The notes: generated by a model from the letters alone, not told the origin. A DNA stretch of 64,000 bases from Acutalibacteraceae bacterium (GCA_045591225.1 JAZNSL010000056.1:19123-83122); one strand, 5' to 3'. Positions 11,488 to 48,528 are shown, numbered from the stretch's first letter. Numbers and translations are program-made.

Positions 11488-11491
11488 ACTT

Positions 11492-16327: not shown

Positions 16328-16344
16328 GTAAAGGGGGTGAGGAT

Positions 16345-33377: not shown

Positions 33378-34463
33378 ATGAATGTTTTTATTAGTTGGTC
33401 TAAAGCAAAAAGTATGCAATATGCGCTCAAAACAAAGGCACTTTTAGAAAGTCTTGACCCTTCTATAAATGCATTTGTTTCAGAAGTAGACATACATGGT
33501 GGAGAAGATGTTCAAGAAAAAATAATACATAAAATTATCGAATGTGATAAGTTGGTTCTATGTTTCACTAAGGAAAACAAAAAATCTCCATGGTTGCTAT
33601 TTGAAGCGGGATATGCAAGAGGATTACGTAAAACTGTTATTCCAATTCTTTTTGACGATGATCCCAATTGGCATTCATGGGTCGATAATCCAATGAATAT
33701 AGCACGTGAAATTAATTTCAACGACAAAAATTTTTCTAATGTTTTCTTTGACTGCTTTGGAATTGTTAGTTCCGAGAAAAACAAACAAAAGTTACAAAGA
33801 TATAGGAAAACCATCCTTGATATTAAAGATAAATTTCGCCAAGTTGATATTCAGTGTGAGGATTTCGTAGATAAATTAACACATAATGAAACTTTTATTG
33901 TGGAAAATCCTTTTTATAGAGGCAGAACTGCATTTTTTCTGTCCGGATTTGAAAGCTTTGATCTATATAAAACGATAATCGAATCATTTATGTACACAGG
34001 AAAATATCTGTGGATATATGGGCGAAAAAACATGAAGTTATTTGGGGGAAGTTTCAACTCATTTTTTAAATATCTAGAAGAAAAGGCCTCTTTTGATGGG
34101 ATGGAAGGAATTGATTTTAGGTGTTTGTTCCTCGACCCCGATTCGCCTGAAGTTGAAAAGGCGCATCTTCAACAAGACATTTTCAAATCTGAATTAACTG
34201 CAACTATATTGCGAGCAAAGTCAGTGGTCCAAGACAATCTACAATTACAGAAATGTTTTAGATTATACTCCAATAAGCGAGAAGAAATCATTATTCGTCT
34301 TGATAATTGCATTATTTATGCCAGGCCCAATTTTGATGCAAATGGATATCCGCAATTATTAACTAATAGCGGATTTGAGGTTTTTAGTGTAAAATCCGAT
34401 AAAGGAAAAGAATGTATTAAGAAATATGAAAATGTATGGAATGCAGCAAAAAATATGTTTTAA
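33378..34463 (+). CDS. TIR-domain protein with uncharacterised ~230-aa C-terminal domain
   Basis: N-terminus VFISWSKAKS...DKLVLCFTKENKKSPWLLFEAGYARG shows the bacterial TIR pattern, including the conserved Glu in FEAG. Confidence 0.65.
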   Translation: MNVFISWSKAKSMQYALKTKALLESLDPSINAFVSEVDIHGGEDVQEKIIHKIIECDKLVLCFTKENKKSPWLLFEAGYARGLRKTVIPILFDDDPNWHSWVDNPMNIAREINFNDKNFSNVFFDCFGIVSSEKNKQKLQRYRKTILDIKDKFRQVDIQCEDFVDKLTHNETFIVENPFYRGRTAFFLSGFESFDLYKTIIESFMYTGKYLWIYGRKNMKLFGGSFNSFFKYLEEKASFDGMEGIDFRCLFLDPDSPEVEKAHLQQDIFKSELTATILRAKSVVQDNLQLQKCFRLYSNKREEIIIRLDNCIIYARPNFDANGYPQLLTNSGFEVFSVKSDKGKECIKKYENVWNAAKNMF

Positions 34464-35125
34464 CTTTTGGATATTAAACCTTTTATTCGTTGCATAATTT
34501 TAGAAATCGTTTCATCAACACTTAGTTCTGTTACATCGACATTGTTGAACAAGTACGGGAATTTTACTGAAAGTTTTTCAGTACTAGTATATAAGTCCAT
34601 ATTTGCTTTGTAGATGAATGGTATATGGTTAATCATATAGGATTCAGGATTCCTATTAAATAGCCGAGTGTAAAGTGCTTGCTCGCTGGTTACATATAAG
34701 TTAATGTATATCACATTGCGATTTTCTGCTAATCCATTGAGTGTTTCTGGAATAATATGAACACCATTGATTATCGAAGATATTCCTTTTCTCTTCTGTC
34801 TGTCTACTATGCTCTCAAAAGAAGAACGCATGAAATAACACTGTTGTTTCGCTTCTTCAAGACACAATAATTTTGTGTGATCGGTAATTTCTATTTGACT
34901 TAGGATATCATTACTTTGCGTCGGAAATTCCCGTTTTAAAAAAGAATTATATCCACGAAGAACCTCTCGAATAAGGTCTGTTTCTTCGATAATTCTAAAT
35001 TCATTAAATCTCTTCAGCAATTCGTATGAGATCGTAGTCTTTCCTACTCCCGGGACGCCAGAAATAAATATTATGAATCCGTCAGGAATTTCGATTTTTA
35101 TATTACTTAATTGGATTGCTTCCAT
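34460..35125 (-). CDS. P-loop kinase-like protein (AAA_33 / 2-phosphoglycerate-kinase-like)
   Basis: Walker A is IIFISGVPGVGKTTISYELL. It is convergent with the TIR gene and the stops overlap by 4 nt. Confidence 0.55.
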   Translation of the reverse strand: MEAIQLSNIKIEIPDGFIIFISGVPGVGKTTISYELLKRFNEFRIIEETDLIREVLRGYNSFLKREFPTQSNDILSQIEITDHTKLLCLEEAKQQCYFMRSSFESIVDRQKRKGISSIINGVHIIPETLNGLAENRNVIYINLYVTSEQALYTRLFNRNPESYMINHIPFIYKANMDLYTSTEKLSVKFPYLFNNVDVTELSVDETISKIMQRIKGLISKS

Positions 35126-35272: not shown

Positions 35273-36187
35273 ATGAAAGAAAAAAATTTACTTGTTGAGG
35301 AATTCCTTGGTGTAGTCGAATCCACCAAAAACTTATCTGAGAATACAATGGTTGCTTATCGTTCGGATTTAATGGATTTTATGAGCTCGGTTGATATGAA
35401 CGCTTTGTACGACAATACGATACTGACCTATGTTCAAACTCTATCGCAGGAAAGAGGTCTAAAGGTTAGTACTATCAACAGAAAATTAGTCGTTTTAAAA
35501 ATGTTATTTGAATATGCTTATGAGCATAATTATTGTGACAAGAACTATTTTTTGTCGCATAGTTTTAAACTTAAAAAAGGAAAAAGATTACCTAAGACCT
35601 TAGCACTTTGTGAAACAAGGAAACTCTTATTATTTCTAACTGACAGATGTAAAAATGCAGAAAGCGATTTCGACCTGTGGAAAGCAACTCGGGATTTGGC
35701 GTTGATTGACATACTAATAAGTACTGGTATACGAATTGCAGAAGCATCAAATATGGCATTGACAGATATTATACCATCTGAACATACAATTCTAATTCAT
35801 GGGAAAGGTCAAAAGCAACGATTGATATATATTTCCTGCTCTGAGACATGGACAAATTTGTTGAAGTGGATTAAGATGAGAAAAAAGTATTCAACAGATA
35901 CCAGTAAAGTTTTTGTGAATCGTCATGGAAAGCAATTAAGCATACATGGAATTGAGTATATATACAACAATCTTAAATCTCAAACAGGTATTAACCCAAA
36001 ATCTACTCCCCATTATTTGCGGCATACTTTTGCAACAAATCTTTTGGCAAATGGTGCTGATTTGCGATCAGTTCAAGAAATATTAGGTCATAGTAGTGTT
36101 TCAACTACAGAAATATATACGGAGGTTACTGGCCAAAGGAAAAAGCAAGTATTGAAAAAATATAATTATCGTAACCGCTTAGTGTAA
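35273..36187 (+). CDS. Xer-like tyrosine recombinase
   Basis: 304 aa. Has ATRDLALIDILISTGIRIAE (Arg I), HYLRHTFATNLL (H-x-x-R) and LGHSSVSTTEIYT (catalytic Tyr). Confidence 0.85.
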   Translation: MKEKNLLVEEFLGVVESTKNLSENTMVAYRSDLMDFMSSVDMNALYDNTILTYVQTLSQERGLKVSTINRKLVVLKMLFEYAYEHNYCDKNYFLSHSFKLKKGKRLPKTLALCETRKLLLFLTDRCKNAESDFDLWKATRDLALIDILISTGIRIAEASNMALTDIIPSEHTILIHGKGQKQRLIYISCSETWTNLLKWIKMRKKYSTDTSKVFVNRHGKQLSIHGIEYIYNNLKSQTGINPKSTPHYLRHTFATNLLANGADLRSVQEILGHSSVSTTEIYTEVTGQRKKQVLKKYNYRNRLV

Positions 36188-36233
36188 TTTTGGTGATCGA
36201 AAATAGTTTTTTCACTGGATAAGTTGTATATAG

Positions 36234-36280
36234 CAAAACCTCCTATGGTAGTTTGGGTTCTACCATAGGAGGTTTTGTTG
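36234..36280. terminator. bidirectional terminator
   Basis: An 18-bp stem caaaacctcctatggtag/ctaccataggaggttttg lies between convergent genes. Confidence 0.75.
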
Positions 36281-36317
36281 ATATATGCGAATGCTTAAAG
36301 AAGCGTGAGCGCTTTTC

Positions 36318-37649
36318 TTACTCAAAATACGGACGAATAAATTCCATCGTAATATCTTCCACTTGTTGAGCTAAGTTTTCAGACACACCACAATAATTGG
36401 CCCCTATGGCAGCAGTGTTGGGGTCCGTTTCGTATAGCATGCCATAAATCATTACAGCACCGCAGTATCCAGCTAATGGTTTAGAGTGAAGCACTCCATC
36501 GTAGTAGATTAACTCGCCTTCGGGTACGCCAGCATCGAGAAGTGCGTAAATGACATCTCGCCAAAATGCCAGTTTCACGTTAGTGTTTCGATAGGCCAAA
36601 GCAGGGTTGGGACCTGTTTCGTTGTGGGCGGGGAATAACACTAATTCAGTTCCGGAGGTGCTGCAAGCGTTCTCCAAGACAGAGAGGTTGCCGGCATCCT
36701 CGGGAGTATAAGCACCGTTGATAAACAGAATGTCATAGTCACCGCCACACAACATATCCAGTTTTTTCGCATCGTGTGCAAAGTCTGTGATAGTGATATT
36801 GGGGAACCAATGCTCATCTACAATAGCATCCTTATGATTGGCCTTCAATATCTGTCGCAGTTGCTGTACCACATCAGAATAACCGATAAAACTGTTGCCT
36901 GCTATGGCAATACGCAGATTCTTTTTGTTGCGGGAGTCCAGCCGGTTGTTTCTCTCTAACAACTGGAAAGATTTCAGCGATTCCAAACAAGCCGCCAAAT
37001 CGTTCGCACTAATATAATCGGCAGAGATCTCTAGCATATAAAAAAACGACTCATTTGTCATCGTATAACTGCTGTAAGTCAATGCGGTGTCAGTACCTGC
37101 TGTGTAGCAGAAAGTCTGTACGGAAAAATCACCAACTTCGGTTTTGCCTACTACATCGTTGGGGACGATATCGGCGAATATAAAATTGGGAATTAATCGT
37201 CCAATTCGTACTTTGTTGCAATAGATGACGGCGTACGATCGGGAACCGTTTTCCTCAATTTGCATGGTCATGTTTTTGGGCAACTGCATTCGAATCCGTT
37301 TCTGTGCGTAGTCGAAGGATAGAGAAATATCCTTCATTGTAGCTTTATCGGGCGCTTTCAACGTTGCATTGTGAACAGGGAAGAAGAGGTCGGCGGCGGT
37401 GTAGGAGTTGGTTGTTTGGGCAGTTGTAGTAGACTTGACTGCTTGCGTCGTTTCAGAGCAAAACGAAGTGGTTAAGCCCTCGCTTGTGGTGTTAGGGCGT
37501 TTGGTGGTTAATTTAGTAGTGTTCTGGCTAGTAAGCGTGGTAGCATTTATGATGGAATCAATACTACTACTGTTTTGTACGTCATTGCATCCAATTAAGA
37601 GAAAACAAGAGCAAAGGAAAATGCATATTATACATTTGATGTGTTTCAT
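36318..37649 (-). CDS. lipoprotein with possible SGNH-like C-terminal domain
   Basis: Start MKHIKCIICIFLCSCFLLIGCNDV carries a lipobox (LIGC) and has RBS GGGAGGG. A Thr/Ser-rich linker follows. The C-terminal segment LRIAIAGNSF... supports the hydrolase call only weakly. Confidence 0.55.
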   Translation of the reverse strand: MKHIKCIICIFLCSCFLLIGCNDVQNSSSIDSIINATTLTSQNTTKLTTKRPNTTSEGLTTSFCSETTQAVKSTTTAQTTNSYTAADLFFPVHNATLKAPDKATMKDISLSFDYAQKRIRMQLPKNMTMQIEENGSRSYAVIYCNKVRIGRLIPNFIFADIVPNDVVGKTEVGDFSVQTFCYTAGTDTALTYSSYTMTNESFFYMLEISADYISANDLAACLESLKSFQLLERNNRLDSRNKKNLRIAIAGNSFIGYSDVVQQLRQILKANHKDAIVDEHWFPNITITDFAHDAKKLDMLCGGDYDILFINGAYTPEDAGNLSVLENACSTSGTELVLFPAHNETGPNPALAYRNTNVKLAFWRDVIYALLDAGVPEGELIYYDGVLHSKPLAGYCGAVMIYGMLYETDPNTAAIGANYCGVSENLAQQVEDITMEFIRPYFE

Positions 37650-37973
37650 AACTATCCCTCCCGTTCCAGTATACCATGGAAGAGAGAGAATGCAATGGAA
37701 ATTTGCAAGAACACGCACTCGTTACTTTGTTTAAGAAATATTAGTATTAATTGTTGTGACGGTTTCGTTATAAGTTCCGAAGAGAGGGTCATCTGCACTT
37801 TTTAAGAAAATCTATTTTACTAATTTCAATTAGCAATCAAGGAAAACCTTCCGAATTGGTGTTTTTATTGTATCAATTCGCCAGGTTTTTTCTTTTTTTC
37901 TTTTATTCTTTTAACTATGACAAAATCTGTCAGAGTTAAAGATTAAACTAAAAAGGCAGAAAGGAGGCGAAAA

Positions 37974-38321
37974 ATGGGAACTGCCGAACGAAGAACCGAA
38001 ATAATGCGTATTCTCTGTAGAAGACGTCACGAAACTGTCGCAAATTTGGCGATTGAGTTCGGCGTTTCCACGAGAACCATTCAACGCGATATAGAAGCAC
38101 TTAGTCTAACAGAGCCTATTTATACTCAGTGTGGGCGATACGATGGAGGAGTTTATGTGGACGAAGACTATGTTATGGATCGCATGTATATGAACAACGC
38201 TGAACTTGAAGTGTTACATAAATTGTCTTCTTTTGCTGAAAGAAAATCGGTTTGTAACTTGGATAAATCAGAAGTGGTTATCCTACAGCGAATGATAGCT
38301 CAGTACACAAAACCTAGATGA
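37974..38321 (+). CDS. HTH (DeoR/HTH_11-type) transcriptional regulator
   Basis: Reads TAERRTEIMRILCRRRHETVANLAIEFGVSTRTIQRDIEAL. Confidence 0.7.
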   Translation: MGTAERRTEIMRILCRRRHETVANLAIEFGVSTRTIQRDIEALSLTEPIYTQCGRYDGGVYVDEDYVMDRMYMNNAELEVLHKLSSFAERKSVCNLDKSEVVILQRMIAQYTKPR

Positions 38322-38339
38322 GAAAAGGAGTAAATAACG

Positions 38340-39407
38340 ATGAAACAAGAAGAAAAAGAATTGTTTAAAAATTTGTGCAGTTTCAAGGCGAAAGATTTTA
38401 ATGAAAACTTACTATCGTATTCAACGCCGGCCGTCTTAGGGCATTTATTTTTTAATCGAATGCAGGCGGTAGCATATGGAGTGCTATTGGAACATGGACT
38501 GTTAGGTAAAGTCAATCGTGAATTTCGCAATTCCGTAAAATCAGCTTACACAAATAACATAGAGAAAAATGATAGCTTTTTTCATTGCGTTCAATATTTG
38601 GAACAAGTGCTGTCTGCATGTGGTTGTAAATACGCTATGTTGAAAGGTGCGTATCTGTGTAAATTGTATCCTAAAGGATATCGAACATCTAACGATATTG
38701 ATTTGTTAGTACTTCCGCAGGATGTTACGATTATTGGTAACACGCTGATTCGGGCTGGATTTAAACAGGGAAACATTCGCAATGGAAAGTTTGAACAGGC
38801 AACACGCAAAGAGATCATTGAGTCTAAAATGATGCGAGGGGAAACGGTTCCCTTTATCAAGGAAGTAAATTTACCAGGATTAACCTATCTGGAAGTTGAT
38901 ATCAATTTTTCTCTTGATTACAAACCAGGAGATACAGAATTGTTGGTAGAAATGCTCGATAATGTGGTGGTGGAAGAATTGCCTGGTTATATGGTACATA
39001 CTCTGCGGCGAGATGACTTCTTTGTGCATTTGTGTTGTCATCTGTATAAAGAAGCTTCCACATTACCTTGGGTAGATATGATGCGCGACATGACGCTCTA
39101 CAAATATAGTGATATCTATATGCTTTTGAATGACGAATCGAAAGAAAACATCAACTATCTGATGTCGCGAGCCAAAGAGCTTGGTGTGGAAAAAATATGC
39201 GCTTTTGCTGTGCTTCAAACATCGGAATTGTTCAACTTTAAAAATGAATATGCGGTTAAAGTAGCAAGAGAGATTCTTGTTGATAACGTTGATTTTATCC
39301 ACACAGTCGTTTCGCCGAAAGATAAAAAAACATATCAATTCTCTAATAAAAATATAATGGATCGCTTTTTTGCTGATAGCAGAAAAGAGCTGTTGCAGGA
39401 GGTGTGA
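38340..39407 (+). CDS. nucleotidyltransferase-family protein (NTP_transf_5-like)
   Basis: LKGAYLCKLYPKGYRTSNDIDLLV is paralogous in pattern to the chromosomal 61746..62903 (LKGSVLRPYYPEAWMRTSCDTDILI). Confidence 0.55.
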   Translation: MKQEEKELFKNLCSFKAKDFNENLLSYSTPAVLGHLFFNRMQAVAYGVLLEHGLLGKVNREFRNSVKSAYTNNIEKNDSFFHCVQYLEQVLSACGCKYAMLKGAYLCKLYPKGYRTSNDIDLLVLPQDVTIIGNTLIRAGFKQGNIRNGKFEQATRKEIIESKMMRGETVPFIKEVNLPGLTYLEVDINFSLDYKPGDTELLVEMLDNVVVEELPGYMVHTLRRDDFFVHLCCHLYKEASTLPWVDMMRDMTLYKYSDIYMLLNDESKENINYLMSRAKELGVEKICAFAVLQTSELFNFKNEYAVKVAREILVDNVDFIHTVVSPKDKKTYQFSNKNIMDRFFADSRKELLQEV

Positions 39408-39411
39408 TTAA

Positions 39412-40053
39412 TTGAAAGAACTTAAGATGCGTCCAAACAATACCCCAGGATATTTGATCACATTCTGTGGATTGGATGGTTGCGGGAAAACGACTATGTT
39501 GACAAAATTGATTGAGGACTTGGAAAAACGATATCAGGTGTTTCTTACTAAACAGCCTACTAATGCTGTTCGTCAATCAGAGATTTTTCGCACATATATG
39601 GATAAGCCTGATCATGATCAATATGATTATAGAAGTTTATCTTTGCTTGCAGCTAGCGATAGACTACAACATGTTAATAAGGTGATTGAGCCGGAGATGT
39701 CGTTAGGGAAGATCGTTGTTAGTGATCGATATTTTTATTCTTGTTTGGCTAATCTGTACGCTCGAGGTTTTGTACAAGATGATTGGATCTATGAAATCGC
39801 AGAATCGATAGTTAAACCAGATGTGGCTTTTTTCTTTGATGTGCCGGTAGAAACAGCTGTAGCACGAGTCCGTAGCCGCCCGGCGGAGAAAGATCGCTAC
39901 ATTGATATGGAATTGCAGTATCGTTTGCGTGAGGCGTACCGTACTATTTGTGAGTTGAATAATGGTGTTCTTGTTTCGACAGAGATGCCTATTGAGAAAT
40001 GTTATGCCCTTGTTAAAAAGGAAGTAGAGAGGGTGATGAGAGATGCAGATTGA
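39412..40053 (+). CDS. thymidylate-kinase-like nucleotide kinase
   Basis: Has ITFCGLDGCGKTT (P-loop), TKQPT, LLAASDR and SDRYFYSCLA. A TTG start fits RBS aggaggtg; the alternative is ATG at 39427. Confidence 0.7.
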   Translation: MKELKMRPNNTPGYLITFCGLDGCGKTTMLTKLIEDLEKRYQVFLTKQPTNAVRQSEIFRTYMDKPDHDQYDYRSLSLLAASDRLQHVNKVIEPEMSLGKIVVSDRYFYSCLANLYARGFVQDDWIYEIAESIVKPDVAFFFDVPVETAVARVRSRPAEKDRYIDMELQYRLREAYRTICELNNGVLVSTEMPIEKCYALVKKEVERVMRDAD

Positions 40054-40279
40054 AGATAAAGTGAAAGAGATTGTAGCAGAACTGAGTGGTGAAACAAACG
40101 TTTCCGTTTACGCATCATTGCAAGAGGATTTGGCGTTGGATAGTTTGGCGATGGTTACGCTATTGCTTGAGGTGGAAGACGTCTTTTCTATTGAATTAGA
40201 TGAATCAGATATGAATCCTTTTGACTTAACCACAGTTCAGAGCGTTATTAATCTTGTCAACAAATACGATGGTGACTGA
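40043..40279 (+). CDS. acyl carrier protein
   Basis: 78 aa with the LALDSLAMVTLLLEVE phosphopantetheine-Ser motif. Confidence 0.8.
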   Translation: MQIEDKVKEIVAELSGETNVSVYASLQEDLALDSLAMVTLLLEVEDVFSIELDESDMNPFDLTTVQSVINLVNKYDGD

Positions 40280-40280
40280 T

Positions 40281-41300
40281 ATGAAGAAAAAGGCCGAGCT
40301 GCCTCTCGTAGATCCGTTGTTTAGCACCTATCATTCTTTGGGACCTTGCACTGCAATTGCTGCAAATAATCCAAGTATCAGAAATTGGTATCTTAATGAG
40401 ACGGCGACTTTGATGTGCAGTCGTAAATTTTTAAATGGATTTACATCTCCAGAGATTTTCATTCCGTATGCCGCCTGGTGGGATTGTCCACATTTTGAAG
40501 TTTTAGAGCTTTCCTCGCAATTTTTAAAGGGGTATACGAGCTATGTTATACGAGAGATGATTGATCAGGGCTATTATGTGTTGTTTAGCAATGTGGATGA
40601 TTATTACGTAAAAGGTAAAAGTTGGTATAAAGAGCACCATTTCAGTCACGATGGAATGATTTGTGGTTATGATCAAGAAAAGAAATCATACTGCATATAC
40701 GCTTATGATAGTCGGTGGATCTATCAAAAGTTTTGGACGTCGCAGAAGTCTTTTAACGCTGGCTGCAGAGCGATGATTCGGCAAGGCGTTTTCCCGATAT
40801 TCTACGCATTAAAAGTAAATGATGAAAAAATTGAGTTGATGCCACATGTTATGTGCAATAACCTAAAGAAATACCTTGATTCAAATCTGGAAAAGTATCC
40901 GTTCGGAGGTGATGGGGATGTTTTCGGTATCGTTGTTCATCTTTATATTGCTGAATATGTTGACAAACTTTATAAAGGTGAGATCCCATACGAACGTATG
41001 GATAGACGCGTTTTCCGTGCGATTTGGGAGCATAAAAAGGTTATGTTGGAACGGATAAAAGCTATTGAAAAAACTCTTTGTTTAGGCCGTCAAATTAGTA
41101 GCAAATACGCCGATCTTGTTTCTGAATCGGATACGATGAGGATGCTGTATGCTTCTCATAACAAAAAAAGACGAGATTCTGTTTTGCTTCTAATTAAGAA
41201 GAAGTTACTTCAAATTATGGAAGACGAGCGAGATTTGTTAAATGAATTGATTGTGGAAATGGAAAGGAGCTTTGCAAATGGAATTGTGGGGATATCTTAG
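40281..41300 (+). CDS. BtrH-like / papain-fold putative carrier-protein-dependent acyltransferase
   Basis: Has an N-terminal Cys (LGPCTAIAAN) and HFSHDGMICGYDQEKKSYCIYAYD, resembling the BtrH_N/peptidase C39-like pattern. Recognition is by eye only. Confidence 0.4.
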   Translation: MKKKAELPLVDPLFSTYHSLGPCTAIAANNPSIRNWYLNETATLMCSRKFLNGFTSPEIFIPYAAWWDCPHFEVLELSSQFLKGYTSYVIREMIDQGYYVLFSNVDDYYVKGKSWYKEHHFSHDGMICGYDQEKKSYCIYAYDSRWIYQKFWTSQKSFNAGCRAMIRQGVFPIFYALKVNDEKIELMPHVMCNNLKKYLDSNLEKYPFGGDGDVFGIVVHLYIAEYVDKLYKGEIPYERMDRRVFRAIWEHKKVMLERIKAIEKTLCLGRQISSKYADLVSESDTMRMLYASHNKKRRDSVLLLIKKKLLQIMEDERDLLNELIVEMERSFANGIVGIS

Positions 41301-42654
41301 AAACCAGATGGATAAGCACAAAGAACAGGTGATCTGTGAAGAAGAGAATGTCATAACTTTTGAGAAGGCAAAAGAATTAGTGGAAGAGTTTGCCAAAAAA
41401 CTGGTAGGAATAAAATGCTGTGCAATTTTATGTGATTCGGAAATGGCTGCTGGTTTAGCTCTCTTAAGTTGTTTTGCTGCTGGAGTAACAGCGTTACCTC
41501 TATCTAAAAGATATGGAACTATGCATTGTCAAAAAATTATAGATGCTATCGATCCGGATGCTGTGATAACAGATACAGACAACGAATTAAACGTACATTC
41601 TAGAGAGAATGCTTCCTTTAAATTGCCTGAAAAGCATCCTGCTTTAATAATGTGTACTTCGGGAACCACCGGTACTCCCAAAGGGGCGATGCTGACAGAA
41701 GAGAATGTTCTGACTAATGTAGCGGATATCGCAAGATATTTTCAAATGGATGTGTCGGACACTATACTCATTGCACGTCCGCTATACCACTGTGCTGTCC
41801 TAACCGGTGAGTTTTTAACAGCGCTTGTGAAGGGCGTTAGGATTCGATTTTACTCAGGTTCTTTTAATCCGTCCCAAGTCCTGGCGCTAGTAAAGAAGCA
41901 TAGCATTACCACTTTTTGTGGAACCCCCACATTGTTGAGTATGATGTCACGGTTGAAGCGCGATTCACAAGACAATTTAAAGCACATTTGCATTAGCGGA
42001 GAATGTATGAGCTTTGAAACAGGAACAGCTATTGCCGATGCATTTCCACAGACAGATATTTATCATATCTATGGGCTTACAGAAGCGTGCCCCCGCGTTT
42101 CATACTTGCCGCCGTATTTGTTTCGAAAATATGCGGATTGCGTTGGTGTGCCCTTGAACAATGTGTCGTTGAAAGTGATCACTGACCGCGGAACGTTGGC
42201 ACAACCTAATGAAATCGGTATCCTTTGGGTGAAGGGGGGCAATGTAATGGCCGGATATTACAATAACCCTGAAAAAACATCGGAGGTCTTGAAAGATGGA
42301 TGGTTGTGCACGGGGGATCGAGCGCTCATTAATGAGGTGGGACTTTTGAAGATTAAAGGCAGAAATGACGATTTGATCATAAAGGCCGGCATGAATATAT
42401 ATCCCCAAGAGATTGAAGGTGTTCTGAAAACAGATCCGCGTGTAAGGGAATTGTTTGTGTGTGGTAAGCACGATGACAAATTAGGTGTGCAGATTATTTT
42501 AAATGTTGTGGGCGATTTTTCTGACACCAGTGAGGTAAAAGAATTATGTCGTAACCTTTTACCCTCCTATCAAATTCCAAACAAAATCTATCTGGTGGAT
42601 GAATTGCCTAAAAATGGATCCGGTAAAATTGTTAGGAGGGCTCCGTGTGTTTGA
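41278..42654 (+). CDS. AMP-dependent adenylate-forming enzyme
   Basis: Has IMCTSGTTGTPKGAM, YGLTEA, GDRALINEVGLLKIKGRNDD and LPKNGSGKI. RBS aaaggag precedes ATG 41278. Confidence 0.8.
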   Translation: MELWGYLRNQMDKHKEQVICEEENVITFEKAKELVEEFAKKLVGIKCCAILCDSEMAAGLALLSCFAAGVTALPLSKRYGTMHCQKIIDAIDPDAVITDTDNELNVHSRENASFKLPEKHPALIMCTSGTTGTPKGAMLTEENVLTNVADIARYFQMDVSDTILIARPLYHCAVLTGEFLTALVKGVRIRFYSGSFNPSQVLALVKKHSITTFCGTPTLLSMMSRLKRDSQDNLKHICISGECMSFETGTAIADAFPQTDIYHIYGLTEACPRVSYLPPYLFRKYADCVGVPLNNVSLKVITDRGTLAQPNEIGILWVKGGNVMAGYYNNPEKTSEVLKDGWLCTGDRALINEVGLLKIKGRNDDLIIKAGMNIYPQEIEGVLKTDPRVRELFVCGKHDDKLGVQIILNVVGDFSDTSEVKELCRNLLPSYQIPNKIYLVDELPKNGSGKIVRRAPCV

Positions 42655-43222
42655 ATACGAAAAGAAGATTATGCTGACAGAAGGAGAATATAACGCGATA
42701 TTAACTGTTTTCGGAAGTGGTGTCGACACAATCTTTCAAACCAATTACTACTTCGATACAGAAGATCTTTCAATGGATGCACATGATGTAACATGTAGAA
42801 TTCGAGGAAAAGATGGCAAATATAAAACTACTATCAAGCATCATAACTCCGGAGAGGTAGAGCGAAGTGTCGAAGAATATATATGTGAAAGTTTTACTTT
42901 TGATCCGTCACCCTTTAAGGTCCTCGGGCTGCAGTATCAAGGGGAATTGTCCACGGAAAGGAAAATGCTGTGTCGCTGTAAGCAGTATCAAGTAATGCTG
43001 GACAAAAATACATTTTTAGGCTGTGTGGATTATGAGCTGGAGGTTGAATATCTTCCCGGATATAGTCGAAAAGCGTTGAATTATATTTGTAACATTGGGA
43101 TGACTTTAGCAGAAACCGGTCTCTTAAACCATGCTGATGATTTGATGAAACGTATTGGGCAAGGACAAACGAAATCTAAGCGCTTTTTTGAAAAATTAAA
43201 AAACACTAAGAAAAAAGTTTAA
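42647..43222 (+). CDS. CYTH-domain (triphosphate tunnel metalloenzyme) protein
   Basis: A GTG start lies 6 nt after RBS aggaggg. The N-terminal FEYEKKIML fits the ExExK signature of CYTH. Confidence 0.55.
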   Translation: MFEYEKKIMLTEGEYNAILTVFGSGVDTIFQTNYYFDTEDLSMDAHDVTCRIRGKDGKYKTTIKHHNSGEVERSVEEYICESFTFDPSPFKVLGLQYQGELSTERKMLCRCKQYQVMLDKNTFLGCVDYELEVEYLPGYSRKALNYICNIGMTLAETGLLNHADDLMKRIGQGQTKSKRFFEKLKNTKKKV

Positions 43223-43249
43223 CTATGACAAAGATTGTCACAGTTGAAT

Positions 43250-43292
43250 TTTATAATAAACTTGCAGCTGTGAAAAGGAACTGACGAGTTCC
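43250..43292 (+). promoter_or_regulatory. conserved leader element, copy 1
   Basis: ataataaacttGCAGCTGTgaaaagGAACTGACGAGTTC matches the copy at 45222-45264 at 32/39 positions and contains the hairpin ggaact-gacg-agttcc. Confidence 0.55.
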
Positions 43293-43324
43293 AAAGATTA
43301 GCTTAACTGAAAGGAGGTGAAAGA

Positions 43325-43795
43325 ATGGATAACATGACTTATTATGCATACAATCGCTCTACCTGTATTCCCAGTATGAGCGCATCTGAGTACCTGGAGA
43401 ATATCGAGAATACTGATCTGATCCCGAGAAACGGTTATACGACTTATTGCAATATTTGGGCGCAAAATGTTATGAAGAAATGTAATGTACCTTTCCCTGC
43501 CAAGGGGTGCACTAAGACGCTGGAACTGCTGACTGATGGTTATGATAATTGGGTTCATTTGGATAATGATGAATTCAAGAATGCGCAGGCGAAAGCCAAT
43601 GCAGGCTTTGCTACAATCGCTATTACTTCTGATCATGTTGTGGTAGTTACTCCTAATGACGGTAGTGTTCCCTCTGTTATTGGTGAGGTGTTTGTATCTC
43701 AGTCTGGTTGGGATTGTTTCTATGGCGAAAAACTTTCGTATGCATGGAAGCCTGAGGATCGAGGGGAAATTCAGTTCTTCTATTATTGTGGCTAA
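43325..43795 (+). CDS. papain-like (NlpC/P60-CHAP superfamily) putative cell-wall amidase
   Basis: 156 aa. The candidate catalytic Cys is in TTYCNIWAQNVM and the His in TSDHVVVVTPNDG. Confidence 0.4.
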   Translation: MDNMTYYAYNRSTCIPSMSASEYLENIENTDLIPRNGYTTYCNIWAQNVMKKCNVPFPAKGCTKTLELLTDGYDNWVHLDNDEFKNAQAKANAGFATIAITSDHVVVVTPNDGSVPSVIGEVFVSQSGWDCFYGEKLSYAWKPEDRGEIQFFYYCG

Positions 43796-43833
43796 AGCAG
43801 TATAGCCCGCAATCGTTTCTTAATGAAACAAAG

Positions 43834-43869
43834 AACACCGCACTTCTTAACAAGAAGTGCGGTGTTTTA
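43834..43869 (+). terminator. rho-independent terminator
   Basis: aacaccgcacttctt-aac-aagaagtgcggtgtt plus T's. Confidence 0.75.
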
Positions 43870-44175
43870 CTTGTTACCTTTAAGCGTGAAAATAACCCTC
43901 AGTTCTATCAAGGAAAGAAAAACAGAGCAAGATCTTAGCCTCATATCAGGGGAGGGGGTGCAGGCAAAAAGACGGAGGGGTAATTATCTATTCGACAGCC
44001 CTCGCATTCTCTTGGATAACGCATTTGTCCAAGAAAACTGAACAAGATAGTGTACTTTCAACCTGTTTACGGGTGGCAGTGTGATTGATGAGATGTGAAG
44101 TTCAGAGGCTCTTTCACATGCTGAGTCAGACTATCCCTCTTTAGGGGTTAGTCAAACCATTAGTTATATCGGTAG

Positions 44176-45114
44176 TTATGACTTTGCAATTTTATAGAAA
44201 GTTAACTGTTCCTTCTGCATACAAACGATATACTCATTGCAAATTAAAGGAGTGTTATTGTCAATGGGAACATCGATCTCAATTTGCGGTTCGACAACCA
44301 TCGTTCCATTGGCGTCAATTAAACCCATTTTAGTTCCTATCGTAACCACGGCCACCTCATCGGAGAAAGAACTGATGGAGCTAAAGGCGGTCTGGTTCAA
44401 CACGGTGCCTTGCATATCCAACAGCCGATAAGAACCGTCTTGATACTTGCACACAATGTGAGTATCCATAGCATAAGCGTCTGTTGCTTCGTCGGGCAAC
44501 GTCACTATTACTTCGCCGCGAGGAGAAATCATGACCTGTGGATGTTCGCTTTCCGCTAAGACGGCGTAGTTCATCGGGCTGGATAGGTCACTAATCCATT
44601 CGAAGATGGGCTGAGTAATCAGGTTGCCGGTGGCGACGTCTTTGATGCCAAACAGGTACTCGTCATCTTTTTTTACACCAGTTGTCTCGGAGGAATCGTA
44701 CAGTGCAGTGGCATTACTCGCAGTAGGAGCCTCTGCTTTTCCAACCACTACGCCCGTGGTGTCGATCCACACCCAGTCGCTGTCTGGTTCTAGCTGAGCT
44801 TTAGCTCGACCATCTTCTCCAAAACTATACAGCATATGATAATTGTTTTTGCCAATTTGTTTACCTTCGGTATCAATCAGTATGAATCCATTGGGAGTAG
44901 CAGTGGTTACAATATTGTAATCAAAACTGTAGAGTGCTATAGGTGCATAGGCGGTTTCAAGGTGAGTATGAATGGTAATAGAATTGCCGTTTTGAGTAGT
45001 GGTAGTGGTCGTTTGATTGTCGCCACTATCATTTGGCGCTTTTGGGTTAGCGCTACAGGCTGTCATACACATTAGCAGTGCAAGCGTCATAATTAGTGTT
45101 AAGTATTTTTTCAT
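44176..45114 (-). CDS. WG-repeat lipoprotein
   Basis: Signal plus lipobox is MKKYLTLIMTLALLMCMTACS. It has repeated G.ID..G..V units. Confidence 0.6.
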   Translation of the reverse strand: MKKYLTLIMTLALLMCMTACSANPKAPNDSGDNQTTTTTTQNGNSITIHTHLETAYAPIALYSFDYNIVTTATPNGFILIDTEGKQIGKNNYHMLYSFGEDGRAKAQLEPDSDWVWIDTTGVVVGKAEAPTASNATALYDSSETTGVKKDDEYLFGIKDVATGNLITQPIFEWISDLSSPMNYAVLAESEHPQVMISPRGEVIVTLPDEATDAYAMDTHIVCKYQDGSYRLLDMQGTVLNQTAFSSISSFSDEVAVVTIGTKMGLIDANGTMVVEPQIEIDVPIDNNTPLICNEYIVCMQKEQLTFYKIAKS

Positions 45115-45221
45115 ATTAAAACCTCCTTAAAAATTATATGTAAATTATAACATGCATGAGGGTGATATGCAATAGTTAAATTACAATGTTTCTAACAATG
45201 ACATAAACCGTCGGATTTAGT

Positions 45222-45264
45222 GCTTACAATAAATCCGCAGCTGTTAAATTGAACTGACGAGTTC
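45222..45264 (+). promoter_or_regulatory. conserved leader element, copy 2
   Basis: acaataaatccGCAGCTGTtaaattGAACTGACGAGTTC lies 22 nt upstream of the ATG at 45286. Confidence 0.55.
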
Positions 45265-45285
45265 TGGTGAAGAAAGGAGATTATT

Positions 45286-45960
45286 ATGAAAACAATTATG
45301 GGTATTCATTCCCTAGAGAATTTAAACCACAAATTGAAAAATGGATACACGATGCATGACTGGGTCAAAAGGCAAAGAGGTTATCCTCATTTTTGCTTGC
45401 GAGCACTCACCGGCGAAGACGAGCTGACAGAGACAGAAGTGGCTTTCTTGCATGACAGAAAATGCAAAATTGGTTTGCTATTGTGTGATTTAACCGAGGT
45501 ACAAGTTTCTAGCAGACGAGACAAGGGCGTTGCAGAAAAAGCGGTACAAGCAGCAAAGAAATTGGGGGTACCACAAAATGCAGGGATTGCTATTTTCGCC
45601 GAAATTAAACCGGAGTGGAGTGTCAATCATAACTGGATGTTATCGTTTGCCAATCATTTGATTGCGAATGGCTATATTCCCGGATTTATCGGCAACACAG
45701 ATTCGTCCAAAAACTTTGTTTTCGATCGCGAAACCAGCCATTATGTAGAGGCGACGATGGACACCAACGGATATAGTGCAGTATATGGGGCAACGGAACC
45801 TAAATGCGACGGCTTTCCGTTGGAATGGGCACCTTTTTGTCCCTCGGCACTCAATCCGGATGAGATGAGTTTGTGGGTATGTGGAACCACTACGTTCGAC
45901 GCGGAACAGGTAGAAATCGCATATGCACGAGACGAACAGGTGCTAGAAAGATTTTGGTGA
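45286..45960 (+). CDS. DUF1906-like (glycoside-hydrolase-like) protein, paralogue 1
   Basis: 224 aa. Colinear similarity to 47704..48513, for example LTETEVAFLHDRKCKIGLL vs LTKSEIEFIHSKGCKIAAL, and GYIPGFIGNTDS vs GFTPGFKVNTDA. Confidence 0.5.
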   Translation: MKTIMGIHSLENLNHKLKNGYTMHDWVKRQRGYPHFCLRALTGEDELTETEVAFLHDRKCKIGLLLCDLTEVQVSSRRDKGVAEKAVQAAKKLGVPQNAGIAIFAEIKPEWSVNHNWMLSFANHLIANGYIPGFIGNTDSSKNFVFDRETSHYVEATMDTNGYSAVYGATEPKCDGFPLEWAPFCPSALNPDEMSLWVCGTTTFDAEQVEIAYARDEQVLERFW

Positions 45961-45977
45961 GGAAGGAGAAAAGAATA

Positions 45978-46325
45978 ATGGATAAGAAGCAGTATAACAA
46001 TATCATTGATTGGACTTTAAATAACGAAACCCAGGCAAAGTCGGAGGATTCTCTTACGGTGGCCCGTGTTGTGTGCGCCAATTTGGGTGTTGTCCTACCG
46101 CAAGGGAATCTGTCAGAGGTGGCTGAAATTCTCGCCACCGATGACTATATGGGTTGGCACCCTTGTACTAAAGAAGAAGCACAAGCGGCGGCGAATGTTG
46201 GCACGCCTGTCATTGGCGTGGATAAAGAACAAATCGTTGTACTCGCTGCCGTCGATGAGGAGCAACCGGTAACAAGTCATCCTAATGTAATTACTATGAC
46301 AAACGATACTGTTAATGAGGAGTAG
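45978..46325 (+). CDS. small hypothetical protein
   Basis: Start MDKKQYNNIIDW has RBS ggaaggag. It lies 17 nt after the DUF1906-like gene. Confidence 0.45.
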   Translation: MDKKQYNNIIDWTLNNETQAKSEDSLTVARVVCANLGVVLPQGNLSEVAEILATDDYMGWHPCTKEEAQAAANVGTPVIGVDKEQIVVLAAVDEEQPVTSHPNVITMTNDTVNEE

Positions 46326-46577
46326 GCATTGGTCCGATGTTCAGTCATAGGTGCAAAAACCATAAAAGATATTCAGACAGACCCTGGGGGTGACCATGTT
46401 TTTTTAAGTGTTTTTATGCCTTTCACATTCATACAATAATTGTTCTATCAAACAGTTAGTATCATTTTAATTGTGGAATATTTGTTTGGAACTGTTGTGC
46501 CAATCATTAACAAACTTGAAATCGCACAGTAATGAATGATGAATTACTAGATAAATATAAACGAAAGGAGAAGATGA

Positions 46578-47474
46578 ATGGACGAAGGTTATAATCATTG
46601 CCGATCTACAAGTTCTCATATTGAATGGAACGAATTGATTTATAGCAAATTAGATATTCTTCATACATTGGCACGACAATATGATCATACTCGCGAGATT
46701 TTTTTGCTTTTTCAATTTTTGTATCAAGTAATGCTAGTTCGAGAATGTAATTACGAAAGCGCTCCTGAGGATGACATCCAAGAGTTTATAGATTTCGTTA
46801 AGGAAAGTGATCATACTGTCTTTGACTTTTTTGATAACAAAGTAATAACCGTATATGATTATGACGGCAGTCCTGTTGATTTTACGCATCTATGTGTGAT
46901 GATATACAATATCATTACAGAAAGCGGGAAGCTTTCTGGATCACAATTTGTTGAACATACATATGTTCGAAATTTAGCGTGTTGCACCCGCGATTTACAA
47001 AAGTTAGTTGTCGATGCGTATCTTTTGACAAACGCCTCTAATGACTATACGTACTTTTACAATTCGTTGTATTCTATTATTGGAAATGAACGCTATTCTA
47101 TGGGTATGAAAAAATTACTGGCTGATATTGATGCTTATAATTTCGTTGACAATTTGGTGTCTCCTGATGGTCAGCCGTATTTGTTTGGTTCAGCATGTCG
47201 ATACTATTACAACAATTTGGACAATGGTGGGAAGAGTAAATCATGCCTACGGTTTAGCCAATTCATTGGTAAGGATATGTATGAGCAGTTTGCTGATACT
47301 GTGAGATCTTGTGCAAGAAAATATTGGCTATCTTCCGCAGAAGTATTCACTCGTTCGAACGGAAAAAATGATCACAAAGAGTCACTTCAATTAACGAAGA
47401 ACCAATGTGATGCAGCATGTAATGCTTTTGTTGAGTATATATGGCGAAAATATCAAAAAGAGAGGACTGAGTAA
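46578..47474 (+). CDS. hypothetical protein
   Basis: 298-aa ORF with RBS gaaaggag. No motif recognised. Confidence 0.45.
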   Translation: MDEGYNHCRSTSSHIEWNELIYSKLDILHTLARQYDHTREIFLLFQFLYQVMLVRECNYESAPEDDIQEFIDFVKESDHTVFDFFDNKVITVYDYDGSPVDFTHLCVMIYNIITESGKLSGSQFVEHTYVRNLACCTRDLQKLVVDAYLLTNASNDYTYFYNSLYSIIGNERYSMGMKKLLADIDAYNFVDNLVSPDGQPYLFGSACRYYYNNLDNGGKSKSCLRFSQFIGKDMYEQFADTVRSCARKYWLSSAEVFTRSNGKNDHKESLQLTKNQCDAACNAFVEYIWRKYQKERTE

Positions 47475-47703
47475 ACGATAAGCAGTTCCTTCTAATTATA
47501 TTTTATGGGGAAATGCGGTATGAAAGGATTAAATCGGTCACACGTCGTTTTTGCTTGAATATATATCCGAAGTGAAACTATATGCTATGCAGGATAGAGA
47601 AGAGTGAATCTAAAAAATAATAAAACGAAACTTAACCCTGACATTCATTGTCAGGGTTAAGTTATATGCTGAAGATGCAGCTGCAAAAAAATTAAGGAGT
47701 GAA

Positions 47704-48513
47704 ATGATTATGGCTTGCAGAGATAAATATCAAGCAAAAACAGACAATACAAATAATGTTGTTCATGCTGTAGAGGCGCGAACAACTTCCGCGAAGAATG
47801 CTAGACGCTTGCTTTTCGGAGTTGACTCCAAAAGTAGAGTAGACGAGTTGTTGCAGAACAATCTAAACAAATTTGAATGGGTTGTACGAAATAAGATTGT
47901 CCCCAACTTTTTCGGTAGATATATTTCAGGAGACGAATGCCTAACTAAATCTGAAATCGAGTTTATTCATAGTAAAGGGTGCAAAATAGCTGCTTTGTTT
48001 TCTGATGAAAGTCAAAAATTAACAAAAGAACAGGCGGTATCGCTCGTTGAAAAAATTGATAATTGTGCATTTGAACTAGGCATACCTGAAGGTGTAGCGA
48101 TTTTTCTTGAAATTAGCGAGTCTGAGACAGTAAGTTATGATTTCTTGAAAGAGTTTGCGAGCAGCCTTCTTTTCGCTGGTTTCACACCCGGTTTCAAAGT
48201 GAATACGGATGCGAAGTATGCATTTGACCGCGAATTTAGCAGAGGTATGCAAAACAACAGAGATTTGTTCAGTCAGTGCCTCGTGTGGGCAACAGCACCG
48301 ACGGTGGAGGAATATAACGGCATCACAACTTCGCACCTCATTCATCCGGATGATTGGAAGCCATACGCTCCCTCCGGAATGTCGCGCAAAAATATTGCAG
48401 TGTGGCAATATGGTAACAATTGCCACCCAATAGAGAATGACAATGAAATAGTTACGACTTTTAATCTTAATCTTGTTTGTGACGAACAAGTTATTATTAA
48501 TCGAATGTTTTAA
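47704..48513 (+). CDS. DUF1906-like (glycoside-hydrolase-like) protein, paralogue 2
   Basis: 269 aa, paralogous to 45286..45960, and directly upstream of the RHS gene. Confidence 0.5.
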   Translation: MIMACRDKYQAKTDNTNNVVHAVEARTTSAKNARRLLFGVDSKSRVDELLQNNLNKFEWVVRNKIVPNFFGRYISGDECLTKSEIEFIHSKGCKIAALFSDESQKLTKEQAVSLVEKIDNCAFELGIPEGVAIFLEISESETVSYDFLKEFASSLLFAGFTPGFKVNTDAKYAFDREFSRGMQNNRDLFSQCLVWATAPTVEEYNGITTSHLIHPDDWKPYAPSGMSRKNIAVWQYGNNCHPIENDNEIVTTFNLNLVCDEQVIINRMF

Positions 48514-48528
48514 TTAGGAGGGTATAGT

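Follow-up and report, generated by a model that had tools for sequence, protein, structure and literature searches.

A cassette of carrier-protein and nucleotide enzymes in gut Clostridia and its predicted regulatory link to Rhs toxins on a conjugative element

Enzymes of the CtaG class possess a Cys-His-Asp triad and use acyl donors bound to a peptidyl carrier protein (PCP) or other carrier protein. AsbE and BtrH share this fold class (PMC12865890). In gut Clostridia, fatty-acid amides are made by a ligase, an acyl carrier protein (ACP), and OaaC, a stand-alone condensation (C) domain of the nonribosomal peptide synthetase (NRPS) type (PMC13310621). Toxins without signal peptides, including the Rhs-type TcC, are co-located with a holin, a wall hydrolase, and a dedicated regulator (PMC10847048, PMC12485765). 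The subject of this report is a seven-gene cassette that combines a ligase, an ACP, and a CtaG-like protein with three nucleotide enzymes. The cassette occupies positions 37974-43222 of a 64,000-nt stretch (the window, which is the whole DNA analyzed) from an Acutalibacteraceae bacterium (GCA_045591225.1 JAZNSL010000056.1:19123-83122).

The cassette is real, widespread, uncharacterized, and experimentally tractable. The main new result is its predicted regulatory link to Rhs toxins on a conjugative element. Its place as element cargo, the Rhs modules downstream, and the repetition of its operator at toxin and hydrolase genes go beyond an earlier sequence-only reading of the same DNA. That the genes form one co-regulated pathway is very probable. 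The fuller proposal is that an autoregulated unit within a toxin regulon encodes one cytoplasmic pathway to an intracellular nucleotide-linked or nucleotide-derived N-acyl product. Taken as a composite, this proposal is tentative and falls just short of an even chance.

Cassette layout and the repeated promoter element

The cassette is composed of a regulator gene and six further genes, all on the + strand. The first gene (37974-38321) encodes a 115-aa winged-helix protein of the HTH_11 (helix-turn-helix, HTH) family (Pfam E 1.3e-7). An 18-nt gap separates it from the gene (38340-39407) of a 355-aa nucleotidyltransferase (NTase) with a Pol-beta fold, a member of the NTP_transf_5 family (Pfam E 1.5e-30). 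Next are a 213-aa P-loop nucleoside monophosphate (NMP) kinase of the thymidylate-kinase family (Tmk-like; 39412-40053; Thymidylate_kin E 2e-27) and a 78-aa ACP with its serine in LDSL (40043-40279; PP-binding E 2.7e-8). P5 (40281-41300) is a 339-aa protein placed among transacylases of the BtrH/CtaG/CcbD fold by its predicted structure and Foldseek. The last two genes encode a 458-aa adenylate-forming ligase of the ANL superfamily (41278-42654; AMP-binding E 1.4e-55, plus AMP-binding_C) and a 191-aa CYTH protein, or triphosphate-tunnel metalloenzyme, that starts with GTG (42647-43222; Pfam CYTH E 2.4e-15).

From NTase to CYTH, the genes are spaced by a 4-nt gap, an 11-nt overlap, a 1-nt gap, a 23-nt overlap, and an 8-nt overlap. 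P5 begins with the ATG at 40281, with an alternative TTG start at 40254, and gene callers picked identical start codons on near-identical contigs. The motifs GLDGCGKTT, DRYFYS, LDSL, HDGMICGYD, and FEYEKK (ExExK) were located in the cassette open reading frames (ORFs). The ORFs, spacings, and motifs are all as the sequence-only reading had given them. No transmembrane segment is predicted in any of the seven proteins, and no transporter or exporter gene is present in the cassette at the loci inspected.

DNA upstream of the HTH gene was aligned in 55 loci. The element found there reads tttta-ACCCTGACA-N5-TGTCAGGGT-t and is followed after ~7 nt by TAnAnT and then a ribosome-binding site. The arms of the palindrome vary in a compensatory fashion across these loci. 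In the window, copy 1 of this operator/promoter (ACTATGACA-aaatc-TGTCAGAGT; 37914-37936, + strand) sits ~37 nt ahead of the start codon of the HTH gene, and a -10-like TAAACT (37944-37949) and the ribosome-binding site AAAGGAGG come after it. Copy 2 (43222-43270, + strand) begins on the final base of the CYTH stop codon. Its palindrome, ACTATGACA-aagat-TGTCACAGT (43222-43244), is followed by TATAAT (43252-43257) and a conserved GCAGCTG motif (43264-43270). Copy 3 (ACCCTGACA-ttcat-TGTCAGGGT; 47635-47657, + strand) precedes an Rv2525c-like gene and Rhs operon and is also found in L140 and L141, two near-identical elements. A pattern search of the window gave these 3 palindrome matches against 0.01 expected.

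In 34 loci, the HTH gene has the palindrome and -10 box upstream. The element also precedes Rv2525c-like genes (18) and Rhs genes (8), as well as XhlA-like, DNRLRE-domain, and metallophosphoesterase-like genes. Copies that follow CYTH or precede toxin genes carry a TATAAT-like box and the GCAGCTG motif and are always oriented towards the gene. The architecture of copy 2, after CYTH and before an Rv2525c-like gene, recurs in many loci. Five loci are without the HTH gene, and there the element stands directly before the NTase gene. An Rfam scan of 36000-48600 for a riboswitch or RNA leader (E ≤ 0.1) gave no match, and a generic promoter and terminator scan was uninformative (23 sites vs 22.7 expected).

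The operator has two variants, cTGACA (T type) and cGGACA (G type). Residue 37 lies in the predicted recognition helix of the HTH protein (VSxRTI[L/R]RDIE). Among T-type loci, 16 of 19 have Leu at this position, and Arg is found there in 17 of the 20 G-type loci. This residue is the top column of the HTH alignment for association with the operator variant (mutual information 0.92), and copies in the same locus have the same operator type in 18 of 19 cases (permutation p = 0.0003), both statistics being inflated by shared ancestry. In PADLOC, the 'WYL' model is matched by the HTH part of the protein alone. On this sequence evidence, the HTH_11 protein probably binds the palindrome, autoregulates the operon, and controls the downstream toxin promoters. 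The enzyme operon and the toxin and hydrolase operons would then be one regulon. Leu or Arg at residue 37, paired with T or G in the operator, would be a simple and testable regulatory code linking the Rhs toxins and wall hydrolases of conjugative elements with the enzyme operon.

One metagenome-assembled genome, JAZRNX01, holds two cassettes, L036 and L085. Against the window P5, their P5 proteins have identities of 55% and 44%. In operator type the two cassettes disagree (GGACA, TGACA), which points to private, orthogonal pairings of regulator and operator.

Clustering at 90% identity gives 803 relatives of P5, all unnamed and all from Clostridia gut and rumen assemblies. In a survey of one genome per species, a P5 relative is present in 138 Clostridia species from human and animal guts, and 80 loci were kept for synteny. 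The six genes that the sequence-only reading had grouped occur together in these other genomes. All seven genes are collinear wherever the contig allows, and further metagenome loci concur. Cassette proteins are 44-80% identical across loci. The kinase is the most conserved (60-80%) and CYTH the least conserved (33-50%). CYTH is missing in ~9 loci (L008, L037, L045, L066, L067, L071, L074, L075, L078). The catalytic motifs are kept in all six enzymes.

In-frame fusions of Tmk and ACP are found in three loci (L022:574-1455, L071:5954-6835, and L078:2854-3735), and a read-through fusion of NTase and Tmk in one (L055:1540-1740). Because of these fusions, the overlapping ORFs, and the conserved active sites, the two trios appear bridged into one pathway. 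The sequence-only reading had likewise drawn both trios into a single pathway, and conserved synteny, translational coupling, and the two kinds of fusion support it.

A different explanation is that two unrelated modules stand side by side: an AbiE-like HTH and NTase pair, possibly with the kinase, and a ligase/ACP/transacylase set, with the palindrome serving as a recombination hot spot. Distant P5 relatives do occur without NTase or Tmk in ordinary biosynthetic clusters, and modules behind palindromes are shuffled between loci. However, strict synteny of the six enzyme genes persists over 44-80% divergence, even though the upstream flanks vary. The ORFs overlap, and the Tmk-ACP fusions cross the supposed boundary. 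Moreover, the palindromes are oriented with the -10 box towards the gene, and their variant covaries with the HTH recognition helix. Separate modules are thus highly improbable.

The distant P5 relatives are 22-35% identical to P5 and are found in clusters with ABC exporters, S8 peptidases, and PP-binding and AMP-binding genes. Since these relatives lack nucleotide genes, the nucleotide-coupled, exporter-less cassette is a distinct clade. Distant P5-like proteins (~23% identical) are also encoded on Bacillus megaplasmids and are annotated as hypothetical. The loci are L145 (Bacillus sp. PGP15 plasmid p1, NZ_CP095875.1, 269302-288300) and L144 (NZ_CP128161.1). One of the two proteins belongs to a RiPP-like cluster (RiPP, a peptide synthesized ribosomally and modified post-translationally) with two S8 peptidases, an ABC transporter, a PP-binding gene, two 44-aa ORFs, and DUF692. 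The other is accompanied by MaoC, aldehyde dehydrogenase, TPP-binding, AMP-binding, and KS-like genes and ABC-2 exporters.

The acyl-transfer trio and the nucleotide enzymes

P5 has no match in Pfam, NCBIfam, PADLOC, or PHROG, and sequence and family-profile searches against the PDB found no solved relative. An AF2 model built on 36 homologues (pLDDT 87.4, pTM 0.88) has a beta-rich, papain-like N-terminal half and a helical C-terminal half. In Foldseek, the model is matched over its full length by CtaG (9qvl, E 4e-8), AziU3/U2, and CcbD with its PCP (TM 0.55-0.61, E 4e-8 to 1e-5, alignments of 340-375 columns). The N-terminal half also matches the papain-like phytochelatin synthase. Across 36-75 sequences, C46, H123 (of the HDG motif), and D143 are either invariant or conserved to 90% or more, and they make up a putative Cys46-His123-Asp143 catalytic triad. 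D124 and G125 are likewise invariant in the homologue alignment.

Membership of the window P5 in Pfam BtrH_N (PF14399) fails, with no match. Among 49 distant P5 relatives, 6 match this family, the best at E 1.4e-5, below the cutoff. Because there is no family match, the BtrH-like nature of P5 is testable only by structure. The modeled structure supports its placement in the BtrH/CtaG/CcbD class of carrier-protein-dependent transacylases. At the sequence level, P5 represents a new, unannotated family of papain-like, putatively amide-forming enzymes. The papain-fold, BtrH-like call made by eye in the sequence-only reading holds in the Foldseek matches to CtaG, CcbD, and AziU3/U2, as do the other five assignments.

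In all loci, P5 has the ACP directly upstream and the ANL ligase directly downstream. The ACP matches NCBIfam ACP models, including those of the fatty acid synthase (FAS) type, and the AsbD model (9e-7), all below their cutoffs. Its Asp-Ser attachment site is conserved in 78 sequences. The best solved relative of the ligase is MenE (6e-48), and it is near acyl- and aryl-CoA ligases. It matches NCBIfam PRK07638 over its full length (2.7e-63). The motifs A3 (TSGTTGTPKG) and A8 and the A10 Lys are conserved across relatives. The ligase presumably loads the ACP.

The sequence-only reading had also raised an island-borne analogue of a chromosomal dlt-like operon that alters surface receptors. In such a pathway, an acid would be moved to a teichoic acid or peptidoglycan precursor, either changing receptors or protecting the wall of the producer. 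In size, the ligase and the ACP are close to DltA and DltC. The ACP also gives weak matches to DltC models, which score far below cutoffs (19-33 bits vs 52-68). The proposed regulon includes wall hydrolases (Rv2525c-like and Amidase_2), from which self-protection would be useful. Cytoplasmic wall precursors are nucleotide-linked, which would give the nucleotide enzymes a place. Against this, the cassette has no DltB (MBOAT), no DltD, and no membrane protein of any kind. The loci are also outside teichoic-acid and capsule clusters, with the exception of L001, which has LytR_cpsA_psr neighbors. Finally, the ligase is unrelated to the chromosomal ORF 5418-7016. The dlt-like pathway is the least probable of the explanations considered, with very little chance of being right.

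The cassette as a paralogue of the chromosomal 'dlt-like' region was rejected on the ground that ORF 5418-7016 and the ligase are unrelated. This ORF (- strand) has a hydrophobic sequence that suggests a membrane protein, possibly MBOAT-like.

The NTase matches NTP_transf_5 (PF14907) with 107 bits against a cutoff of 31. Sequence searches against the PDB gave nothing useful, and fold comparison alone worked. The nearest solved folds to the AF2 model (pLDDT 93) are MenT1, followed by LnuA, ANT(2''), TM1012, and TglT. G103, S117, D119, D121, and E168 (a G…S-x-D-x-D motif) are conserved in 72 sequences. A search of viral folds in BFVD with the model found nothing below E 0.001. Membership in AbiEii (PF08843) fails (18.2 bits vs cutoff 22.5), and the gene upstream encodes the 115-aa HTH_11 protein, not an AbiEi/MenA antitoxin. 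A genuine AbiEii is encoded at 11492-12490 and is 28% identical to the cassette NTase over 130 aa. The chromosomal NTP_transf_5 paralogue (61746-62903, - strand, Pfam E 5.4e-35) had been taken as support for an envelope role; it is only 23% identical to the cassette NTase.

The kinase scores 105 bits against a cutoff of 83 with TIGR00041, the NCBI dTMP-kinase model, and its best PDB match is Thermus thermophilus Tmk (E 1.8e-21). The GLDGCGKTT, LLAASDR, and DRYFYS motifs and the lid RVRSR..EKDRY are invariant across relatives. The canonical AYQ base-recognition segment is replaced, reading 'LA-NLY' vs 'LAYQGY' in the T. thermophilus enzyme. Because of this replacement, and because the gene rides a low-GC mobile island, the kinase may have a substrate other than dTMP and a role other than housekeeping, even though it passes the Tmk model. 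The kinase also weakly matches the PADLOC candidates VakA and PDC-M51B.

The CYTH protein scores 57 bits against a Pfam cutoff of 23. Its PDB relatives are BH2851 and GBAA_1210, of the YjbK type. E3, E5, K7, an Arg pair, and a C-terminal ExExE are conserved in 61 sequences.

The nucleotide enzymes may instead serve the carrier protein itself. CitG/CitX and MdcB/MdcG install triphosphoribosyl-dephospho-CoA on the ACPs of citrate lyase and malonate decarboxylase, and CitX and MdcG are NTase-fold enzymes. By analogy, NTase, kinase, and CYTH would build or attach a nucleotide-derived prosthetic group, or activate the ACP, yielding a non-canonical holo-ACP. The cassette would then be independent of host phosphopantetheinyl transferases (PPTases), and the ligase and P5 would acylate a non-nucleotide amine. 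The NTase fold of CitX and MdcG, the Tmk-ACP fusions in three loci, the NTase-Tmk fusion in one, and the lack of a PPTase in every locus favor this explanation. PsmN, which acts in the biosynthesis of the lasso peptide pseudomycoidin and is apparently the one relative of this NTase family studied so far, is also consistent with it. PsmN is a member of 'a family of uncharacterized nucleotidyltransferases', presumably PF14907, and modifies a Ser phosphate installed by its partner kinase PsmK. However, a PP-binding protein as canonical as this ACP, with its DSL serine and its matches to FAS-type models, would by default be modified by AcpS or Sfp. The kinase has the NMP-binding motifs of Tmk, not those of dephospho-CoA kinase, and CYTH is dispensable in ~9 loci. 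A non-canonical holo-ACP is therefore distinctly improbable.

Toxin modules and the conjugative element

Rhs modules nearly always follow the cassette. Of the 52 loci with enough downstream DNA, 46 have a front gene of the DNRLRE-domain or Rv2525c-like kind directly downstream, and 38 carry an Rhs protein. The DNRLRE-domain front protein has 376 aa, and a profile search of its family against the PDB found nothing. The front gene is followed by a Big_2/DUF6531/Rhs protein of ~1,700-2,100 aa. In DNRLRE-type loci, only ~5-45 nt separate the cassette from the next gene, so co-transcription of the two is likely. The Rv2525c-like family (flank cluster 10) comes directly after the cassette in 32 loci. 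No signal peptide was found in the Rhs protein or in either kind of front gene product.

The window carries parts of Rhs modules at 45286-53523. Its Rv2525c_GlyHyd-like front gene (47704-48513, + strand) encodes a protein without a signal peptide, the homologues of which carry PF08924. The Rhs/YD-repeat polymorphic toxin gene behind it (48529-53523, + strand) encodes 1664 aa with Big_2, DUF6531, and 18 RHS repeats (RHS_repeat E 1e-134). Nearer the cassette, behind operator copy 2, is a 156-aa ORF (43325-43795, + strand) that is conserved in the near-identical element L140. It has no Pfam or NCBIfam match; by eye it looks like a cysteine hydrolase of the NlpC/CHAP kind (YCNIWA ... SDHVVVV). It shares the motif Q..AN.G......VVV..ND with the conserved N-terminus of a second polymorphic-toxin family (~350 aa; L018, L020, L025). 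A 150-aa fragment of this second family is encoded at 45873-46325, preceded by a 224-aa Rv2525c-like paralogue (45286-45960).

Rv2525c-like/Rhs modules also occur alone, so the dependence between cassette and module runs one way. L088, L089, L091 (position 9907 or 150), and L092-L093 are among these stand-alone modules, and some have the palindrome, the -10 box, and GCAGCTG. A matching regulator encoded at another site in the genome may act on them in trans. Stand-alone modules are found in very common gut species, and one such protein is indexed in 248 contig-collection blocks.

The neighboring toxin could itself be the substrate. HlyC activates RTX toxins using acyl-ACP. In the same way, the relay could acylate a Lys or the N-terminus of an Rhs-module protein, with the kinase and NTase adding a phospho- or nucleotidyl group. 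Before its release, the toxin would be armed, anchored, or masked by the cassette. The position of the cassette, almost always directly upstream of Rhs modules, agrees with this, as do the short gap of DNRLRE-type loci with its likely co-transcription and the promoter element common to cassette and module. The missing signal peptides of Rhs and front proteins, with holin and amidase modules in the same regulon or element, fit as well. On the other hand, it is common to find Rv2525c-like/Rhs modules that have the shared promoter but no cassette. The two kinds of front gene are unrelated and the toxin tips polymorphic, so that a common protein acceptor is not obvious. Moreover, known members of the BtrH/CtaG fold use small-molecule or carrier-bound acceptors, not proteins (PMC12865890). 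Toxin maturation is improbable.

The cassette has a GC content of 38-42% and lies inside a low-GC island (~10.3-57.5 kb) between host flanks of 55-60% GC. Near-identical elements carry a MobL relaxase, a primase, a VirD4-type coupling protein, a holin, Amidase_2, and a lysozyme. The copy of the element in the window ends with a large serine recombinase. The cassette is cargo of a conjugative element. The upstream flanks vary and hold host genes, XRE plus ImmA-like genes, serine recombinases, or holin and amidase genes.

A prophage, raised by the holin, amidase, and XRE/ImmA neighbors, was rejected. IMG/VR and a set of 50,697 phage records gave no relatives, phage structural genes are missing from the left arm of the window, and conjugation genes are present in near-identical elements.

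In 15 loci, a conserved Zn-ribbon protein of 55-80 aa (CPxCGR ... EGxCPKC) is encoded between a divergent pair of XRE repressor and ImmA-like peptidase and the cassette. Its gene is ~400 nt upstream of the HTH gene in L012, L013, L016, L039, L050, L051, L058, L060, and others. A RiPP pathway was considered and rejected, since the search for a conserved precursor peptide upstream found none and returned only this Zn-ribbon protein of the XRE/ImmA module.

The left arm of the island (10879-20150) is a defense cluster by domain matches. It is made up of DUF6088 (AbiEi-like) with the genuine AbiEii (10879-12490), PRTase-CE plus an ORC-CDC6-like gene (12480-15420), an N6_Mtase/Eco57I methylase (16345-17406), and a RelA_SpoT-like gene adjoining a DndB/GmrSD_N-like gene (17837-20150). 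Between the Amidase_2 gene and the cassette are a TIR-domain protein (33378-34463), a convergent P-loop NTPase (34460-35125, - strand), and a tyrosine recombinase (35273-36187). This block is a recent insertion, because the near-identical elements L140-L143 lack it.

Such surroundings bring up an abortive-infection role against phages or plasmids. The NTase would be a toxic effector on tRNA or RNA 3' ends, restrained by the kinase (type VII), or a toxic nucleotide analogue would be made on infection. Several observations agree: the NTase is nearest in fold to MenT1 and TglT with weak AbiEii similarity, the kinase has its weak matches to VakA and PDC-M51B, and the enzymes are cytoplasmic with no exporter. 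The island also carries AbiE, PRTase-CE/ORC-CDC6, methylase, RelA/SpoT-DndB, and TIR genes, but the TIR block is an insertion lacking in near-identical elements. No PADLOC 2.0 system matches, and NTase, ACP, P5, ligase, and CYTH have no PADLOC match. AbiEii is below the Pfam cutoff, and the partner gene encodes the HTH_11 protein, not AbiEi. The consistent neighbor of the cassette is an offensive toxin module, not defense genes. Defense would also leave the ACP, ligase, and transacylase without a role, and it is decidedly improbable.

Proposed pathway and comparison with known systems

The preferred reading is one pathway under the control of the HTH_11 protein. This protein would bind the palindrome at its own promoter and the identical elements before the Rhs-toxin and cell-wall-hydrolase operons, so that the enzymes are expressed together with the toxin arsenal borne by the conjugative element. 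The ANL ligase would adenylate a carboxylic acid and load it as a thioester on the 78-aa ACP. P5 would take the acyl group on Cys46 and form an amide with an amine acceptor, following the logic of AsbC/AsbD/AsbE, BtrH, CcbD, and CtaG. Kinase, NTase, and CYTH would act on the nucleotide moiety of the same pathway. The Tmk-family kinase would convert an NMP-type phosphate to a diphosphate, and the NTase would transfer a nucleotidyl group or, as in the case of PsmN, act on a phosphate placed by the kinase. Tripolyphosphate removal, or the trimming of a triphosphate, would fall to CYTH.

The end product of this pathway would be an intracellular co-effector, toxin modifier, or inducer of the toxin regulon, not an exported antibiotic. 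Because the fusions tie the kinase to both NTase and ACP, and no exporter is present, an intracellular nucleotide-linked product is the most economical reading. The reactions are assigned from the established chemistry of the families, and their order, the identities of acid and amine, and the biological role are provisional. An acylated or aminoacylated nucleotide, the first product named in the sequence-only reading, is possible.

Several points weigh against this pathway. A nucleotide-linked amide as the product is proposed from gene content only and is in itself unlikely. The kinase keeps most dTMP-kinase residues and could be a plain NMP kinase that supplies nucleotides. CYTH is dispensable and not essential, because it is missing in ~9 loci. 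Since no PPTase gene is encoded in any cassette locus, activation of the ACP needs a host or unrecognized activity. On the regulatory side, a recognizable -35 box at standard spacing is lacking in the promoter, and shared ancestry confounds both covariation statistics. Stand-alone modules also exist that share the promoter although neither cassette nor HTH gene lies within 10 kb of them, from which it follows that the toxins need no enzymes in cis.

A narrower proposal is that the cassette is the first thiotemplated route to a nucleotide effector. The acid on the ACP would be joined by P5 to an amino-bearing nucleotide, whose phosphorylation state is set by kinase, NTase, and CYTH. The acyl-nucleotide would be an inducer or co-toxin, and a subpopulation would be committed to expressing and releasing the Rhs toxins that the conjugative element carries. 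This proposal is quite unlikely. If it is true, an acyl-nucleotide inducer would be a private, operator-specific 'weapon switch' spreading among gut Clostridia. If the product is nucleotide-linked, carrier-protein chemistry would extend into nucleotide signaling or nucleotide antimetabolites. A new small molecule or modification from abundant gut commensals is likely, and the locus is a possible Gram-positive counterpart of holin/endolysin-mediated toxin release.

The closest described systems are AsbC-AsbD-AsbE of petrobactin biosynthesis in Bacillus anthracis and the BtrH, CtaG, and CcbD systems. All combine a stand-alone adenylating enzyme, a small carrier, and a protease-like Cys-His-Asp transferase that delivers to an amine. 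The cassette resembles them in the full-length fold match of P5 and in the AsbD- and PRK07638-type model matches of ACP and ligase. However, its sequences are unrelated, with no BtrH_N match and no PDB profile match for P5. Unlike these systems, it has no siderophore synthetases, ATP-grasp enzymes, decarboxylases, or exporters. It joins the trio to Tmk-like, NTP_transf_5, and CYTH proteins, which no described member of the class does.

DltA and DltC are similar in being an ANL ligase of ~460-500 aa and a carrier of ~78 aa in Firmicutes. The cassette differs in having a papain-like transferase in place of DltB (MBOAT), DltD, and the membrane step, and in its genomic context. The fatty-acid-amide pathway of gut Clostridia also makes amides from a carrier-bound acyl group with a minimal set of three proteins (PMC13310621). 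It condenses through the NRPS C domain of OaaC, not a papain-like fold, and has no nucleotide enzymes and no link to toxins.

MenT/AbiEii, TglT, and PsmK/PsmN share a Pol-beta-fold NTase of the same structural neighborhood and, as here, a partner kinase. The partner in the cassette is a P-loop kinase of the Tmk family, not AbiEi/MenA or HprK.

Loci of toxins released by holin and endolysin, or type 10 secretion system (T10SS) loci, include the C. difficile PaLoc and the Tc locus of Yersinia entomophaga. They are alike in having large signal-less toxins, a holin, a wall hydrolase, and a dedicated regulator. At the cassette loci, one promoter element is common to Rhs, Rv2525c-like, Amidase_2, holin, and XhlA-like genes, a grouping that may likewise serve toxin release by lysis. 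The regulator of known T10SS loci is the sigma factor TcdR or RoeA, whereas here it is the 115-aa HTH_11 protein, on a conjugative element of a Gram-positive commensal. No known T10SS locus has an enzymatic ACP/nucleotide cassette.

Literature searches for PF14907/NTP_transf_5, for the gene combination, and for VakA/PDC-M51 returned nothing relevant. The component families are all known, and their combination is not described in the databases or papers searched. The acyl half of the cassette is NRPS-independent thiotemplated amide synthesis, which is without precedent in being coupled to nucleotide enzymes and to a toxin regulon. The system could prove categorically new if its product is an acyl-nucleotide.

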